From assembly GCA_036758585.1 (NCBI GenBank), contig DAIOWH010000095.1, positions 1-23,794 of the forward strand: a stretch of DNA of 23,794 nt, read 5' to 3'. Made by a program: the position numbers and the translations under genes. Below are positions 4,684 through 23,300 of this stretch, piece after piece. The first letter of the stretch is position 1; each line of letters begins with the position of its first letter. The stretch comes from Planctomycetia bacterium (GTDB taxonomy: Bacteria; Planctomycetota; Planctomycetia; JALXBF01; JBGPMX01). A model generated the notes under the pieces. That model made no database searches and had not been told where the DNA came from. It worked only from the letters and a program-made list of their open reading frames with translations.

Positions 4684-5544
4684 TCATCGGCCTCTCTGGT
4701 CCAGCGCAGATTTGAGGTACTTGACGCTCTTCAATACCGCCTTGTGTTCGTCGCCCGACCGCGGGTGCAGGTAGTCAACCTCGACGGCAAGCAGGCCGCC
4801 GTACTTCACTTTCCGCAGGATGCCGAGCACCACGAGAATGTCCACGACGCCCTCGCCGAGCGGCACGCTGGGCCAGAAACTGAATTCCTTGGGGTCGCCC
4901 CGGAAGCTGATCACGTCCTTAACGTGCGTCGCTCGCGTCCAGGGGGCGAGCGTGCGGGCGACCGCCACGGGATCCTCGAACAGGCGGACGTTGTTCGCCG
5001 TGTCCAGACAGACGCCGAGCCACGGCGAGTCGATGTCGCTCATCAGCTCGGCCATCTCGGCGGCGGTGAGGTCGATGTGGTTTTCCATGGCCATGACGAC
5101 GCCGTGGTCGCGGGCCGGAGTGACCAGACTGCGGAGCATGTTGAGCAACCGGCGACGATGCACCGCCCACGAGTTCGGCCGAGTGCGGCGACTGCCACCG
5201 ACGATTCGCATCACCTTCGCGCCCAGCCGCTGAGCCACACCGAGGTGGACCACCAAGTCCTTGGCGGCGGCCCGGTCGGTTCCTGATCGCAACCCGTTCG
5301 GGTGCCCCCACGCCCAGACTCGCTCGAACCCATGTTGATCGAGCGAGTCGCGCAGGCGGCCGACGAGCGCGTCGTCCGGCGGCGGCAGGAAGCAAGACTC
5401 GATCGACACGCCCGCCACGCCGAGCCGTCGCGCGAGCCGCAGGAAATCCCAAACCGTCATGCGACGCCCAGGGTCCGCTTGCAGGCCCGGATACCATTCG
5501 CCGAAGTAGCGATGAAAACAGTACGAGTCGATGGCGAGTTTCAT
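4684..5544 (-). CDS. Sugar phosphate isomerase/epimerase (xylose isomerase-like TIM barrel, AP endonuclease family 2)
   Basis: ATG at 5544 (MKLAIDSYCFHRYFGEW...). Conserved features of xylose-isomerase-like TIM barrels (MENHIDLT, CLDTANN, HVKD). The upstream 100-aa extension of the tracked ORF has no homology and overlaps the intergenic region. Confidence 0.8.
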   Translation of the reverse strand: MKLAIDSYCFHRYFGEWYPGLQADPGRRMTVWDFLRLARRLGVAGVSIESCFLPPPDDALVGRLRDSLDQHGFERVWAWGHPNGLRSGTDRAAAKDLVVHLGVAQRLGAKVMRIVGGSRRTRPNSWAVHRRRLLNMLRSLVTPARDHGVVMAMENHIDLTAAEMAELMSDIDSPWLGVCLDTANNVRLFEDPVAVARTLAPWTRATHVKDVISFRGDPKEFSFWPSVPLGEGVVDILVVLGILRKVKYGGLLAVEVDYLHPRSGDEHKAVLKSVKYLKSALDQRGR

Positions 5545-6338: not shown

Positions 6339-6449
6339 GGCGTGTGCCGGTTGTCGTTCAGTGTAAGATCGCTCACGTCGTAGTACTGTGCGGTGGTATC
6401 TTACCCGCCACGTCGGGTTGGTCGAGCCGGCAGGCCGGAGAACTTTACG

Positions 6450-7031
6450 ATGCGGCGAATCTGTGTCTTCTGTGGTTCCAAGGTGGGTGCGGGCGGCGCG
6501 TATCGCGCGGCGGCTGAGGATCTGGGCCGGTTGATGGCCGAGCGCGGCCACGGACTCGTGTACGGCGGCGGCAGCGTCGGGCTGATGGGGGTGATCGCCG
6601 ACACGGTGCTGGCCGCCGGCGGCGAAGTGATCGGCGTCATTCCCGAGCGGCTCGCGACCGCGGAGCTGCTGCACACCGGCGTGCAAGACATGCACGTCAT
6701 GGCCAGCATGCACGCGCGCAAGGCACGCATGGCCGAACTGTCCGACGCATTCATCGCCATGCCCGGCGGCTTCGGCACCTTCGAAGAACTGTTTGAGATG
6801 ATCACCTGGTCGCAGCTCGGCATCCATCGCAAGCCGGTCGGACTACTCAACGTGGCCGGCTACTTCGAGCCGCTCGTGCAACTGATTGATCACGCGGTCG
6901 CCGAGGGGTTCATCAAGCCGAAGTACCGCGGACTTGTTGTCCTGGCCGAGCGCCCGGCCGCCCTGCTCGACGAACTGGCTCGCCATCATGCCCCGGGCGC
7001 TCCGCAATTGGTTCGCCCGGAAGAGAGCTAA
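6450..7031 (+). CDS. LOG-family cytokinin riboside 5'-monophosphate phosphoribohydrolase (TIGR00730)
   Basis: MRRICVFCGS...GLVYGGGSVGLMG...PGGFGTFEEL are the hallmark LOG motifs. Met at 6450. Divergent from the membrane protein gene. Confidence 0.85.
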   Translation: MRRICVFCGSKVGAGGAYRAAAEDLGRLMAERGHGLVYGGGSVGLMGVIADTVLAAGGEVIGVIPERLATAELLHTGVQDMHVMASMHARKARMAELSDAFIAMPGGFGTFEELFEMITWSQLGIHRKPVGLLNVAGYFEPLVQLIDHAVAEGFIKPKYRGLVVLAERPAALLDELARHHAPGAPQLVRPEES

Positions 7032-7230
7032 TGCGGTTGGTTACGCGACTCTTGGGTTTACGGCGGCGCGCCTTGGATCCGACGCGGGCCTGGGCGGAAC
7101 ACTACCGAACCAACACGACTTGAGCCCGGAAATCACACCGTCGCCCACTCGCCGGTGGCCTTCCGTCGCACCAGCCCGAAACGCTGACTAATCGCGCAGC
7201 ACCATGTCCCCGGGCACCATCCTCGACACT

Positions 7231-7545
7231 TCTCCCTCCCCGTTGCGGCATTGGTATCTACACAAGTCCGAGACAGGGCCAGCCGCGAAGCGGCGCGAGT
7301 CGATAGCCAGGGGCGCAAGCCGGCTAACGCCCCTGGCTATCGACTCACGTCCCTTCGGGACTAAGTACTGTGCCACATTGAATAGGGTGTGAAATCGGCT
7401 TCGGTCGTTTAACCCGCAGCCGCAGGCGAGGCATGGCTGGCGCTTGTTGTGCCTCGCCTGCGGCTGCGGGTTAAACGAATTCGGACCCCTTTCAATGCGG
7501 AGCGGTACTAAGTTGTGTAGATACCAATGCCGTTGCGGGGAGAGT
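7231..7545. repeat. Inverted-repeat-bounded structured element (candidate MITE or structured ncRNA) in a convergent intergenic region
   Basis: Read directly: imperfect ~30-bp terminal inverted repeats. The left arm (7231-7265) is 'tctccctccccgttgcggcattggtatctacacaa'. The right arm (7513-7544) is 'ttgtgtagataccaatgccgttgcggggagag', with 20 bp perfect. Inside are a 15-bp perfect hairpin (7301-7342), two C(UUCG)G tetraloop hairpins (7349-7361, 7395-7406) and a 27-bp perfect hairpin (7407-7476). A degenerate third copy of the terminal repeat is at 7568-7587. Confidence 0.45.
7407..7476. other. Perfect 27-bp GC-rich hairpin (gtttaacccgcagccgcaggcgaggca / 16-nt loop / reverse complement)
   Basis: Read directly. 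No downstream T-tract, so it is not a canonical intrinsic terminator. It generates mirror ORFs on both strands encoding 'CLACGCGLN'. Confidence 0.7.
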
Positions 7546-7641
7546 CGGGGTGAGGGGTTGGCGGCATGTTGTAGGTACCAATACCCGGCGCTCAGCCCGC
7601 AGTTGGTTCTGCCCGACGAGTGTTGACAGATTCCTCGCGAC

Positions 7642-9006
7642 TCACGCCGCAATTCGTGGGCCTTCCGACTTGTCGACGCACGCGGCGACGGCCAGATCGC
7701 CGGTCACGTTCAGGACTGTGCGAGACATATCGAGGATGCGATCGACGCCCAGGATGATCGCGATGCCCTCGCCCGGCACGCCGACCGAACGCAGCAACAC
7801 GACAATGAGCGGAATCGAACCGCCCGGCACGCCGGCCGTGCCCACCCCCGCCAGCACCGACATGAGCACCACCTTGATTTGGTCGGCAAGCGACAGCTCC
7901 ACCCCGAACACCTGGGCCAGGAACAGCACGACGATGCCTTCGTACAGCGCGGTGCCGTTCTGGTTGCCGGTGGCGCCGACGGTCAGTACGAAGTTGCTGA
8001 TCTCGGGTCGCAGCCGCAGTCGTTCGCGGGCCACCTCGATGGCCGTGGGCAGCGTCGCGTTCGACGACGATGTGGCGAACGCGGTGAGCATGGCCTCGGA
8101 GACGTCGCGAAAGAACGCGGCTGGACTGCGGCCGCCGAACACCCGCACCGCGCACGAATACACCACGCACAAGTGCAGGGCCAGCCCGATCATCACCGTG
8201 AGCACGAACCAGAAGAGCGTCCGCAGGATATCGACGCCCAGCCGCGCGGTCATGGCGAACACCAATCCGGCCACGGCGATCGGGGCGAGTCGCATGGCGA
8301 AGTGGATGATCGCCATGCAGGCGTCGAATACGCCTTCGAGCACGCTGACCACGCCGGCCCGCCGGCCTTCCGGCACGACCGCCAGAGCGACGCCGAACAC
8401 GAGCGCGAAGAACATCACCGACAACATGCCGTTGCCCTTCGAGCTGCCGTCGAGCGCCCCGACCATCTCCTGCAGCGGGTTCTCGGGAATGATGTGCAGC
8501 AGCGTATCGCGCAGCGACTTGGCACTCTTGGCCTTGGTCACCATCTCGCCCGCGCCGGCGGCGTATTGGGCCTTGAGCTGTTCGCGCTGCGCCTCGGGCA
8601 AGCTGGCGCCAGGCTCGATCAGGTTCACCAGAGCGATCCCAATCGCCACGGCCGTAAGCGAGAAGCCGAGCGTGAACACGAGCGTGCGCACGCCGACGCG
8701 GCCGAGTCGCCTCACGTCGCCGATGCCGACCACGCCCAGCGCCAACGCCGAGAACACCATCGGCACGACGATCATGAAGATCAGTCGCAAGAAGACCTGC
8801 CCCACCGGTTCGGCCACGTTGCGCGCGACGGCGTCGAGCGTCTCGTTCATCTTGCCGTCAGGCCCGCGCGGAAACGACAGGTTGGCGATCACGCCGGCCA
8901 TGGCGCCGAGCACCAGTCCAATCCCGATCTGCCAGTGCAGTGCAAGTCGCCCGCTCGATTCTTGAGGTGCTTTCTCAGCCAAGCCTGCCCGTCCTTTGGC
9001 CAGCAT
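7642..9006 (-). CDS. Dicarboxylate/amino acid:cation symporter (DAACS family, GltP/DctA-like)
   Basis: 454 aa, multi-TM. The N-terminus LALHWQIGIGLVLGAMAGV and the motifs SSSNATLPT and GVPGGS are typical of sodium:dicarboxylate symporter family proteins. Confidence 0.85.
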   Translation of the reverse strand: MLAKGRAGLAEKAPQESSGRLALHWQIGIGLVLGAMAGVIANLSFPRGPDGKMNETLDAVARNVAEPVGQVFLRLIFMIVVPMVFSALALGVVGIGDVRRLGRVGVRTLVFTLGFSLTAVAIGIALVNLIEPGASLPEAQREQLKAQYAAGAGEMVTKAKSAKSLRDTLLHIIPENPLQEMVGALDGSSKGNGMLSVMFFALVFGVALAVVPEGRRAGVVSVLEGVFDACMAIIHFAMRLAPIAVAGLVFAMTARLGVDILRTLFWFVLTVMIGLALHLCVVYSCAVRVFGGRSPAAFFRDVSEAMLTAFATSSSNATLPTAIEVARERLRLRPEISNFVLTVGATGNQNGTALYEGIVVLFLAQVFGVELSLADQIKVVLMSVLAGVGTAGVPGGSIPLIVVLLRSVGVPGEGIAIILGVDRILDMSRTVLNVTGDLAVAACVDKSEGPRIAA

Positions 9007-12396: not shown

Positions 12397-12495
12397 ATTC
12401 GTGGCCGACGCTGCCAGCGTCGGCACCGGACGCTGGCAGTGTCCGCCACGTTGGGTTGCGGGCGCAGCCAGCGTTAGGGTACGAAAGTTGAGAGT

Positions 12496-13795: not shown

Positions 13796-13828
13796 GAACC
13801 CGGTCCCGGACAGCTCCGGGCTCGGCGA

Positions 13829-13960
13829 GTAGGCTGGGTGCGGCACCCAGCCTACGGAAGACCCATTCAGAAGTAGGCTGGGTGCGGCACCCAGCCTACG
13901 GAAGACCCATTCAGAAGTAGGCTGGGTGCGGCACCCAGCCTACGGAAGACCCATTCAGAA
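13829..13960. repeat. Three tandem 44-bp units, each a 27-nt perfect palindrome 'gtaggctgggtgcggcacccagcctac' plus 'ggaagacccattcagaa' (REP/BIME-like)
   Basis: Read directly: units start at 13829, 13873 and 13917 and are identical. They are preceded by 'cggcgagtaggctgg', which is also found at 10511. Confidence 0.8.
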
Positions 13961-14133
13961 GTGCAAGGACAAGATGAATGGCAAATCGTTGTGGAGTGAC
14001 TGCTAAGAAGTCATCGGCGACGAGCAAAGTAATGGCGCAGATTCCCCTGCGCACGGCTGTTTGTTAGGATTACGCCCGATCGGAAAGTCTCGCGGAAGAC
14101 CCACGAAGCCAATACGCAAGGAGTTACGATTCG

Positions 14134-20363: not shown

Positions 20364-23300
20364 CTACTGATCCAGTTCCATCGGCGGCGTCGCGACCGGT
20401 GCGGCGGCGGCGGGGAGCCGGATGTTGAACTTATCGGGGTCGGCCAGGAAGAGCTGCCGGCGACCGGCGGCGGCCGGATCGAGCACCAGCTTGTCCTTGT
20501 CGGCGAGTGTGGCCTCGATCGCGTTCAGGTAGAGCCGCAGGCTGGAGATCGCCGGCCAATCGGCGTAGGCGGCGCGTCGCATCGAAAACGCCGCCGCATC
20601 GCCCTCGGCCCGGTACGTCTGATCGGCCGCCCGCGCCTTGGCCGCGGCCAGTTCGCTCGACGCCTCGCCGCTCAGGTCCGGTTTCAGTTCGGCCCAGACC
20701 GCGTCCGTCACCTGGCCATCGTGCCGCGCGAGTCGTTCGGCGGCGGCGGCGCCGGCGACCGTGATGATTTGCTGCTGAAAGTAAGCGTCGGCCTCCTTCT
20801 GCATGCGCTCACGGTCCTTGAACGCGCTCGAAACGTCGTGGAAGGCGTCGACGACTTGCAGCGGCGGGTGCACATCCTGCAGCGCGACGGCACGGACGTC
20901 GACGCCGAGTCGGTAGTCATCGGTGCGTTGTTGCAGTAGCGACCGGGCCTCGCGCTCGATCTCGGCGCGCTCAGCGGTCAGGATATTCCAGAACGCTCGC
21001 CGCGCGGCCAGTTCGCGCAGCACGCCCTCGGCCAGCGACTTGACGACCGAGTCGGGATCGCGCACCTCGAAGAGATATCGCACGATGTCGGCGTCGCCGC
21101 GCCGCACGCTGAACTGCACCACTGCGTTCAGCTCGAGCAGGTTCTCGTCGCCCGTGAAGAGCAGCGACTCGTCCTCGACCCGTTCGATCAGTCCCTCGCG
21201 ATGCGTGCTGGTCCACTCGATCGGCCGCGCCCCTTGGAACGACTCGTCGGTCCGCGTGCGAAACCCCAGTTCGGCCACGCGCACGCGGTCGGGCGCGAAT
21301 CGCTCGACCGTCTCCCACGGCCGCGGCAGCCGGAAGTGCAGGCCCGGCTCGAGCGCGGCGATGAACCCGCCGCAACGTTTCACGACGCCGACCTCGTCGA
21401 GGTCCACTACCGTGACGCCCATCGCCCAGTAGCCGATCACGGCCGCAACCGCCGCCCACGTCGCGGCCGCTCGCGGTTTGCGCACGGCCCAACGGACGGG
21501 CTGTAGCAGCGGATCGAGCGCGGCGCCTGCGCGGCGGGCCAGTTCGCACGCCTGCGATTCGAACCGACCGGCCGCCGATCGTTCCCAGCGCTCGAACCAG
21601 AGCAGGCGCATCGCATTGACCAGCACGAGAAACGAACCGATCTGGTGGTAGATCGCCGCGCCGACCGGGCCCAGCCGTTCCGCCGCAGCGAGCACGATCG
21701 CGACGCCGTTGACGACGAACGCGAACAGCACGATGTTCTGCCGAATCACCCGCACGGTCGCGCGGCTGAGCCGCACCAGGCCGGGCAGCGGGGCGAGCGG
21801 GTCGCCCATCAGGACCAAATCGCCCGCCTCGGCCGCGATGTCGCTGCCCACGCCGCCGAGCGCCAGCCCGACGTCGGCCGATGCCAGCGCGGGAGCGTCG
21901 TTCACGCCGTCGCCGATCATGGCGATGGGAACGCGAGAGGATAGAGGATAGAGGATGGAGGATGGAGGATGGAGGATGGAGGATTGCGCAGAAGCGGTCG
22001 GAGTGTCGTTGCGCGATCCTCGATCCTCTATCCTCGATCCTCTACCATCAACCCTCCTCTTGATCCACTCGGCCTTCTCTTGCGGCAGCAACTCGGCGTG
22101 GAACTCGTCGATGCCGACGGCGCAAGCGACGGCCTCGGCGGCCGGCCGGCGGTCGCCCGTGAGTAGGACGATCTCATCGATGCCGAGGTGTCGCAGCTCG
22201 CCAAGCACGTCGACGGCACCGGCCCGGATCGTGTCGCGCGCGCCGACGAGGCCGATGACGCGGCCGTCGAGCGCGACGGCGAGCGGCGTCTGGCCGGCCG
22301 CGTCGAGTCGCGCGAAGGCCGCGGTAACCTCGTCATCCAGCGTGACGCCCTGCTGCTCAAGCAACCGTCGGTTGCCGACGCAAATCAGAGATTGCTGATT
22401 GCTGATCGCCGATTGCTGATCGCTGACGGTTGACGTCTGACCGCTCGTCCGCGCGACAACTCCTGCGCCGGGGTGGGCCGTGAACTCATCGACGGAGGGC
22501 AGCACGAGTGCGCGTTTGGCGGCCTCGGCGACGATCAAACGACCCAACAGATGTTCGCTACGCGACTCGGCAGCCGCGGCGATCGCGAGCACCTCGTCGG
22601 CCGAGCGCTCGGCGAGCGGGATGACGTCGCCGAGTTGCAGCTTGCCTTCGGTCAATGTGCCGGTCTTGTCAAAGGCGATCGCGCGGACGTGGGCAAGGCG
22701 CTCGAGTGCGGCACCGCCCTTGATCAGGACGCCGCGCCGGGCCAGCCACGCCAACGCGGCCATGATTGCGGCGGGGGTCGCCAGAATCAGCGCGCACGGG
22801 CACGCGACGACCAGCACCGCGAGCGTCGGCATCCAATCGGCGCTCGTCAGGTCCGACCAAGGAGTACCCCAGGTCGTGTAGACCATCGTGCCGGCGGCAC
22901 TCGCGAGCACGACCGGCAGGAACACGCGGGCGAGCCGGTCGGCGATGCGTTCGATCGGCGCCTTGTTCTCTTGCGCCTCGGCGACCAGCTCGATCACCTG
23001 AGCGAGCGTTGTGTCCTCGCCGACCTTGTCGGCCCGCACTTCGAGCGCGCCGAACTGGTTCAGCGTGCCGGCGAAGACCATATCGCCCGCGGCCTTGTCC
23101 ACCGGCACACTCTCGCCAGTAAGCGTGCTCTGGTCCACGGCCGACTGGCCGCCGAGCACCGAGCCGTCGATCGGGACTCGTTCGCCGGGCCGCACCACCA
23201 CGCGCTCGCCGACGTTCAGTTCCGTGATGGCCACGTCGACCTCGTGGCCGTCGCGCAGCACGTGGGCCACGCGCGGTTGCAGTTCCAGGATGCGGCTCAT

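Follow-up and report, generated by a model that had tools for sequence, protein, structure and literature searches.

A 281-bp noncoding sequence in contig DAIOWH010000095.1 of a Planctomycetia bacterium (GenBank assembly GCA_036758585.1), analyzed here over 23,794 nucleotides (the window), is very probably a miniature inverted-repeat transposable element (MITE). Judged from sequence comparison, it would be a non-autonomous derivative or an end-mimic of an insertion sequence (IS) of the IS4 family, IS50/Tn5 subgroup, that is widespread in Planctomycetota. The terminal inverted repeats of the element pair at all 17 positions (7249–7265/7513–7529), a target-site duplication of 9 bp, perfect and as long as those that the parent transposase produces, lies on either side (Table 1), and the element is small and coding-free, as the open reading frames (ORFs) overlapping it have no Pfam match. 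In addition, its ends are those of full-length IS copies that encode a transposase, a sibling copy is present at a second locus, and the region is absent in a close relative. These features bear out one of the two readings proposed for this region in a first-pass annotation, a non-autonomous transposon; the other, a novel structured RNA, is not supported by the analysis described below. The element is of an ordinary kind, mildly unusual only in its recurrent cargo, an inverted doublet of the Acido-Lenti-1 motif, and in a strong preference for a palindromic target.

The first-pass annotation had placed terminal repeats at 7231–7265 and 7513–7544. The inverted repeat is real (7236–7265/7513–7542, 30 nt, 90% complementary in a repeat search of the window), but the element itself begins at 7249 and ends at 7529. 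In each "30-bp repeat", 13 nt on the outer side are not transposon end, and consist of the 9-bp duplication plus palindromic target arms. The apparent ~30-bp repeat and the long-range helix closing it are therefore accounted for by the 17-bp end, the nearly palindromic duplication and the target arms together. The annotation had also proposed a check for target-site duplications, which reveals the perfect 9-mer CCGTTGCGG on both sides. The 19-mer TTGTGTAGATACCAATGCC has two exact occurrences in the window, one on each strand (expected, 0.00), and the left end CATTGGTATCTACACAA fits the end consensus of the IS50 subgroup, CW------Y---CA-A--W- (PMC2266710).

The same end is found in many genomes. 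A scan with the 19-mer as query, covering one genome per species, matched at least 117 stretches; among the matches listed, most belong to Planctomycetota (Pirellulaceae, Planctomycetaceae, Gemmataceae, Isosphaeraceae, Phycisphaera, Kuenenia) and some to Methylococcales, Acidobacteriota and Verrucomicrobiota. In short contigs the match sits near the contig end with its inner side toward that end, as is expected for a multi-copy repeat that breaks assemblies. Another copy of the end is probably contained in UUGUGUAGAUACCUAUGGCC, a sequence beside an unrelated RNA motif candidate in a metagenome alignment from 2010 (ABEF01021936.1; PMC2864571, supplement file 99).

Among the matched loci, L080:5802–7165, in a Rubripirellula genome, is a full-length IS of ~1.36 kb with two copies of the end arranged as in the window and a single 429-aa ORF, the stop codon of which lies inside the right end. 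Against DDE_Tnp_1 the encoded protein scores 25.7 bits, exceeding the cutoff (23), and against the NCBIfam IS4 model NF033590 it scores 116 bits, under the cutoff (160). It also has a weak match to the Tn5-type N-terminal DNA-binding domain and contains a Y(2)R(3)E(6)K motif (YYWRWRIETYFKLLK). More than 4300 homologues of this protein exist, many of them alone on contigs of ~1.37 kb; those named by NCBI are each an "IS4 family transposase" (Rhodopirellula, Stieleria, Roseiconus, Aporhodopirellula). Transposase sequence also lies directly beside the end in eight further loci (L089, L088, L071, L085, L060, L066, L012 and L093; tblastn, 36–100% protein identity). A second full-length copy, L124:489–1851 (1363 bp), comes from a complete genome record of 8.16 Mb; its ends are identical, and its duplication, CCCACTGGG, matches at 9 of 9 positions. 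Members of the IS4 family that belong to the IS50 subgroup are 1350–1550 bp long and have ends of the consensus form CW------Y---CA-A--W-, a YREK motif and direct repeats of 8–9 bp (PMC2266710). The parent IS has all of these characters: it is 1363–1368 bp long, its transposase contains YREK, and CATTGGTATCTACACAAGT fits every specified end position. Duplications in the whole IS/MITE group are 8–10 bp, mostly 9 bp. The inner end positions 11–19 (TACACAAGT) are presumably identical to those of the Tn5 outside end.

The position of the true ends and the length of the duplication are established by short elements with the same ends. Fuzzy matching identifies 52 left–right end pairs (63–1368 bp) in Planctomycetota, Methylococcales and Acidobacteriota, nearly all too short for coding; 18 of them have perfect duplications. 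In L047 (CCCCTGAGT), L083 (CCGCGTGCG) and L092 (GGTACAAGG), non-palindromic outer bases are repeated directly within perfect 9-bp duplications, and the true ends are therefore CATTGGTATCTACACAA and TTGTGTAGATACCAATG (17 bp). The full-length copies L080 and L124 follow the same 9-bp rule, and other pairs have duplications of 8 or 10 bp. A 5-bp duplication with 19-bp ends is ruled out by pairs that repeat their two outermost bases directly and not as an inversion; in most pairs the left side has GG here and the right side CC, which mimics an extension of the inverted repeat.

The element also has a target preference. The profile of 130 outward flanks reads C-N-N-N-G followed by GG-R-G-R-G, one side of it being biased because the scan 19-mer includes two nucleotides (CC) of the preferred target. 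The preferred target is accordingly symmetric, of the form CYCYCC-N5-GGRGRG, with a duplication covering CC-N5-GG. In 814 kb of loci there are 12 such palindromes without an interruption, against 2.75 in shuffled sequences. In the window and in the sibling copy, the target arms continue as part of a longer G-rich repeat (GGAGAG..GGGGTGAGGGG), and two insertions in one Rubripirellula genome (L071 and L080) have 42 nt of common left flank beyond duplications that differ (CAGAG and CGGAG core), which indicates that the preferred target is itself part of a longer dispersed repeat or palindrome. The target in the window is the loop of a G-rich palindrome that resembles repetitive extragenic palindromic (REP) sequences.

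If transposition proceeds as in Tn5, a full-length copy would provide in trans a transposase that binds and synapses both 17–19-bp ends, and the element would be excised by the Tn5-type hairpin cut-and-paste route, with DNA hairpin intermediates. Integration across a 9-bp staggered cut in the palindromic target, followed by repair, would then yield the duplication. The group resembles IS50/Tn5 in the length of the parent IS (1363–1368 bp), its DDE transposase with YREK, the consensus-fitting ends, the 9-bp duplication and the symmetric target preference. It differs in that the window copy is 281 bp without a transposase, that a GC-rich palindrome (CYCYCC-N5-GGRGRG) takes the place of the weak Tn5 consensus, that the hosts are mainly Planctomycetota, and that the transposase scores 116 bits against the NF033590 trusted cutoff of 160. 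MIC231, other non-autonomous derivatives of the IS4 family and bacterial MITEs such as Correia, RUP and ERIC are short, coding-free, self-complementary and intergenic, with the ends of an autonomous IS and a characteristic duplication. The element has all of these traits, but, unlike in those elements, its cargo is made up of further palindromic repeat modules and not of sequence left over from an IS interior. In the literature, no paper containing the end sequence was found, and no description of it turned up for MITEs of Planctomycetes. A very widespread and apparently undescribed Tn5-like IS/MITE group of Planctomycetota is delimited by its true ends, duplication length and palindromic target, which helps the annotation of these genomes and explains contig breaks in their metagenome assemblies. 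A misleading candidate for a novel structured RNA is also eliminated.

BLAST of the element against plasmid and phage collections gives no match. The window interior has no similarity to the loci of the genome scan that bear the terminal repeats (L002–L118), interiors differing completely between genomes apart from the ends, and none was seen to the interior of the IS in L080. A metagenome scan using the right end plus six subterminal bases as query, however, identifies one sibling, L119, on a 109-kb contig of another sample, where the flanking genes differ from those of the window. The common blocks are 94–100% identical, and the sibling has a different duplication beside the same kind of target arm. 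It contains two extra pieces, one of 100 bp at the center of the palindrome 7281–7362 and one of 268 bp at the left edge of the second module, flanked by an 8-bp direct repeat, CTAAGTAC; the corresponding uninterrupted site is at 7361–7369 of the window. The 268-bp piece (L119:1948–2215, minus strand) has imperfect terminal repeats (TTGGTCAGGAATTAGTTCC and GGAAGTTATTCTGAGCCAA) and many long perfect hairpins, and is a second type of MITE. In L119, two different MITEs with the same IS50-type ends (L119:2443–2723 and 1777–2438) abut head to tail in one palindromic target; their flanks are not clean duplications, which suggests successive insertions or recombination between copies. A contig break inside the element in L001 was set aside as copy-number evidence; it falls in the 29-bp hairpin and is probably an effect of the palindrome on assembly.

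Several observations weigh against the assignment as a transposed MITE. Only one sibling with this particular interior was retrieved; the two abutting MITEs in L119 lack clean duplications; the exact empty site CCCTCCCCGTTGCGGGGAGAGTCGG was not found in metagenome contigs; and tblastn gives no match to the transposase in the 23.8-kb window, so that a source acting in trans in this organism is an assumption. Moreover, the close relative L120 lacks the whole 614-bp intergenic block and not just the 281-bp element. The contrast between presence and absence accordingly does not isolate the insertion of the MITE.

This last observation is the basis of a different account of how the element came to lie here. 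The gap, described in the first-pass annotation as convergent, 610 bp long and without a plausible protein, is all of these: it separates a LOG/lysine-decarboxylase-like gene (6393–7031, plus strand) from a sodium:dicarboxylate (SDF) symporter gene (7642–9006, minus strand), and its ORFs have no Pfam match. In BLAST of the window against L120, 4715–7033 aligns with L120 5357–3047 and 7648–10706 with L120 3015–1, the flanks being 93–97.5% identical. The symporter–LOG spacer differs in every relative examined: 31 bp in L120; 361 bp, with a 111-aa ORF, in L121 and L122; and 965 bp, with a Uma2 endonuclease gene, in L123. The spacers of the more distant relatives (361 and 965 bp) are unrelated in sequence to that of the window, and the Uma2 gene of the window and L120 lies on the opposite side of the symporter gene. 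The LOG gene end (6992–7034) recurs in degenerate form, as a direct repeat of ~40 bp, at 7583–7629, and the two copies enclose the block that L120 lacks. This pair of repeats resembles the attL/attR sites left by a site-specific recombinase or an unusually long duplication of the target; an integrase is absent. Near it lies a third copy of the terminal repeat, also reported in the first-pass annotation, which is real but degenerate (Table 1) and probably the relic of an older insertion; no left-end partner for it is present in the window, and nothing convincing occurs in 7034–7239. Together, the LOG-end duplicate and the solo right end suggest an older event at this spot.

The element might accordingly not have transposed into its present site and might instead be a passenger in a ~0.6-kb block (7034–7647) whose integration site was the LOG gene 3′ end. 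The absence of the entire block from L120, the degenerate copy of the LOG gene end and the variability of the spacer among the relatives examined are all consistent with such a history, which is rather unlikely, though it is the strongest of the rival accounts. No integrase gene and no recognizable att site accompany the block, which is also far too small for an island, and the 9-bp duplication shows transposition into the palindrome, whether before or after the block arrived. The passenger account also concerns the history of the element and leaves its identity as a MITE untouched.

The interior of the MITE is passenger DNA composed of nested palindromic modules: a collapsed inverted doublet of the Acido-Lenti-1 motif and a repeat-bounded module with a 29-bp hairpin. 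These palindromic cargo modules explain the hairpins and tetraloops that drew attention to the region. The RNA fold of 7225–7600 has z-scores of −14.7 (plus strand) and −15.0 (minus strand), and the single-stranded DNA fold of 7249–7529 has a z-score of −17.6. The adjacent 7034–7239 is unstructured (z = +0.5, no better than shuffles), and the exceptional folding is thus confined to the MITE. The structures listed in the first-pass annotation are present, with some changes of extent. A hairpin given as 27 bp is 29 bp long and has a 16-nt loop (7405–7433/7450–7478); one given as 15 bp has a perfect stem of 19 bp (GAGTCGATAGCCAGGGGCG/CGCCCCTGGCTATCGACTC) inside a 41-nt palindrome (7281–7321/7322–7362); and the C(UUCG)G loops are seen near 7349–7361 and 7396–7407. 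The supposed internal degenerate copy of the terminal repeat at 7358–7383 is better read as an arm of a separate internal inverted repeat, 7360–7397/7476–7513.

The Acido-Lenti-1 RNA motif is Rfam family RF01687 (Weinberg et al., 2010; PMC2864571). The published motif occurs in tandem arrays (period 69–115 nt) and, as represented by Lentisphaera and a metagenome from a whale fall, in the same kind of inverted doublet; Rhodopirellula baltica has the motif as well (PMC2864571). The Rfam search recommended in the first-pass annotation gives no match in the whole window at the gathering threshold; in E-value mode RF01687 scores 36.3 bits at 7307–7362 (plus strand) and 32.7 bits at 7281–7336 (minus strand), the former just below the gathering score of 37. 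Matches to microRNA families in the same mode are generic long-hairpin matches far below threshold. In L119, the two RF01687 units are separate, inverted and 90 nt apart, and score 48.5 and 44.3 bits, above the gathering score. The window copy is a deletion derivative, its two inner hairpins having fused. A covariance model (R1) combining the two units of L119 with the published alignment (PMC2864571, supplement file 183), used to search 703 kb of loci, scores the window units at 39.0 bits (7281–7336) and 41.3 bits (7307–7362).

With this model, inverted doublets (reverse unit, spacer, forward unit) are found inside MITEs with the same ends in L119 (both MITEs; one doublet at 2470–2689), L048 (Kuenenia; 4916–5107), L082 (7622–7863) and L112 (5926–6112). 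A further doublet, L005:7304–7530, lies outside any recognizable MITE. The spacer is mostly ~90–100 nt; it is ~170 nt in L082 and is longer also in L005 (range 130–170). Most significant matches to the model fall within the ~2% of the sequence that is MITE, as judged from match coordinates with no formal test. Among 13 MITE-borne and neighboring units, in an alignment that was itself fitted to the model, 99.3% of cells pair and 10 of the 13 base pairs of the hairpins are changed on both sides. A single G-U occurs in 150 cells, and pairing is thus almost purely Watson–Crick. The published seed covaries too, with A-C mismatches (e.g., 11 at pair 4–17) exceeding G-U pairs; if an RNA exists, the opposite strand might be the better folder.

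The units resemble the published motif in having two hairpins, a GGCUA-containing linker and a 3′ CU, and the sibling copies pass the gathering score. Unlike it, they occur here in Planctomycetota, inside IS50-type MITEs and always as an inverted doublet, and those of the window are fused by deletion and score just under threshold (36.3 vs 37). Flanks of the published alignment (Lentisphaerae, Acidobacteria) contain no recognizable IS50-type end. Because of the doublet arrangement, the Watson–Crick-only pairing and the equal foldability of both strands, the Acido-Lenti-1 units are read here as probable DNA-level palindromic repeat modules carried as cargo, and not as an RNA gene. A broader proposal, put forward tentatively as a possibility less likely to hold than to fail, is that the "Acido-Lenti-1 small RNA" of Rfam is no RNA gene at all and is instead the 46-nt terminal module of a ~190-bp DNA-level doublet, comparable to REP doublets that form hairpins (REPINs), and a recurrent cargo of IS50-type MITEs in Planctomycetota. 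If this were true, one selfish palindrome would be spread by the transposase of another element. The occurrence of the motif as inverted doublets inside mobile elements in any case calls for caution in regarding Acido-Lenti-1 as a family of small-RNA genes.

A structured noncoding RNA gene is very unlikely at this locus, whether as an RNA of ~300 nt closed by the long-range helix or as a small RNA of the Acido-Lenti-1 type, in either case with the repeats as selected RNA helices. The folding energy is very low, UUCG loops are present, and the plus strand folds 18 kcal/mol better than the minus strand, but the z-scores of the two strands are equal and the closing helix is fully accounted for by the transposase ends, the duplication and the palindromic target. 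The RF01687 scores (36.3 bits in the window, 48.5 and 44.3 in L119) and the strong covariation of both motif hairpins, seen likewise in the published seed, speak for an RNA. On the other hand, the window reaches no Rfam gathering score, an inverted doublet places one sense and one antisense unit on each strand, near-pure Watson–Crick pairing fits DNA-level palindromes at least as well, and interiors are completely different between genomes, the ends excepted. Features that would mark an RNA gene independently (its own promoter, a terminator, strand-specific structure) are not displayed by the sequence: no sigma-70-like promoter or intrinsic terminator is present in 6900–7800, and both strands fold. 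What is left of the RNA reading in the first-pass annotation is a motif already catalogued.

A cluster of REP-like palindromes maintained by the host (e.g., as a bidirectional RNA-end or stabilizer module), with no insertion by a DDE transposase and with only a secondary likeness to IS ends, is scarcely credible, since IS copies that encode a transposase have identical 17-bp ends in many genomes, the 9-bp direct duplication is perfect and the MITE of the window recurs at the unrelated locus L119. In favor of such a cluster, the flanking genes converge, a setting typical of REP accumulation (PMC3733652), other dispersed palindromes occur in the window (such as the GTAG-tagged array described below), and Acido-Lenti-1 units at other sites are arranged in tandem arrays and inverted doublets in the manner of clusters of REPs or bacterial interspersed mosaic elements (BIMEs). 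A REP-like view may be appropriate for the cargo modules, though not for the element as a whole, which is taken here as a MITE. The likeness to REP, REPIN and BIME sequences is twofold: the target is the center of a short GC-rich palindrome, of which these genomes contain further copies, and the Acido-Lenti-1 doublets are arranged like REP doublets. The Acido-Lenti-1 units themselves might be REPs with a GTAG or CGTC tag, or the ends of elements mobilized by a Y1 transposase (PMC3733652). IS elements that insert into REP-type palindromes include IS1397 and ISKpn1. In contrast to REP systems, the target has no established GTAG or CGTC tag, no REP-associated tyrosine transposase (RAYT/Y1) was seen, and the inserting enzyme would be a DDE transposase of the IS4 family.

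Table 1. Coordinates in the window of the MITE, its target and neighboring features.
Feature	Position	Strand	Remarks
Putative MITE	7249–7529		281 bp, noncoding; ends are those of the full-length IS copies L080:5802–7165 and L124:489–1851
Left terminal inverted repeat CATTGGTATCTACACAA	7249–7265	+	Identity to the IS end runs on through 7268
Right terminal inverted repeat TTGTGTAGATACCAATG	7513–7529	+	17/17 perfect pairing with the left end
Target-site duplication CCGTTGCGG (9 bp), left copy	7240–7248		Same 9-mer at 7530–7538
Target-site duplication CCGTTGCGG (9 bp), right copy	7530–7538		9/9 against the left copy
Left target arm CTCC	7236–7239		Outside the left duplication; pairs with GGAG at 7539–7542
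Right arm of G-rich palindromic target repeat GGAGAGTCGGGGTGAGGGG	7539–7558		Like the flank GGAGAGGGTTGGGGTGAGGGG after the L119 sibling copy and many other ends
Collapsed inverted doublet (predicted) of the Acido-Lenti-1 (RF01687) two-hairpin motif	7281–7362		Units 7281–7336 (−) and 7307–7362 (+), one central hairpin in common
Second internal module	7360–7513		38-nt imperfect inverted repeat 7360–7397/7476–7513, 74% complementary
Perfect 29-bp hairpin, 16-nt loop	7405–7478		Arms 7405–7433/7450–7478, 100% complementary; the L119 hairpin is identical
Degenerate solo right end TGTTGTAGGTACCAATA	7567–7583	+	13/17 match; 7570–7585 is 88% identical to 7516–7531 over 16 nt
Degenerate duplicate of the LOG gene 3′ end	7583–7629	+	Against 6992–7034; repeat spacing 595
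Intergenic block with the MITE	7034–7647		614 bp; only 31 bp instead in the close relative L120

Apart from the intergenic block, the window contains other repeats; no tRNA or tmRNA was found. A perfect tandem array at 13828–13962 (44 bp × 3.1) has a unit with a 27-nt palindrome, GTAGGCTGGGTGCGGCACCCAGCCTAC, tagged GTAG...CTAC like classical REP sequences. A 35-nt copy of this array lies at a different locus in the relative (L120:117–151), and the array is therefore a dispersed repeat. Other strong inverted repeats occur at 21–85 (23 nt, 96%), 12400–12450 (22 nt, 91%) and 21936–22043, the last an AGAGGAT-type pair inside a P-type ATPase ORF.

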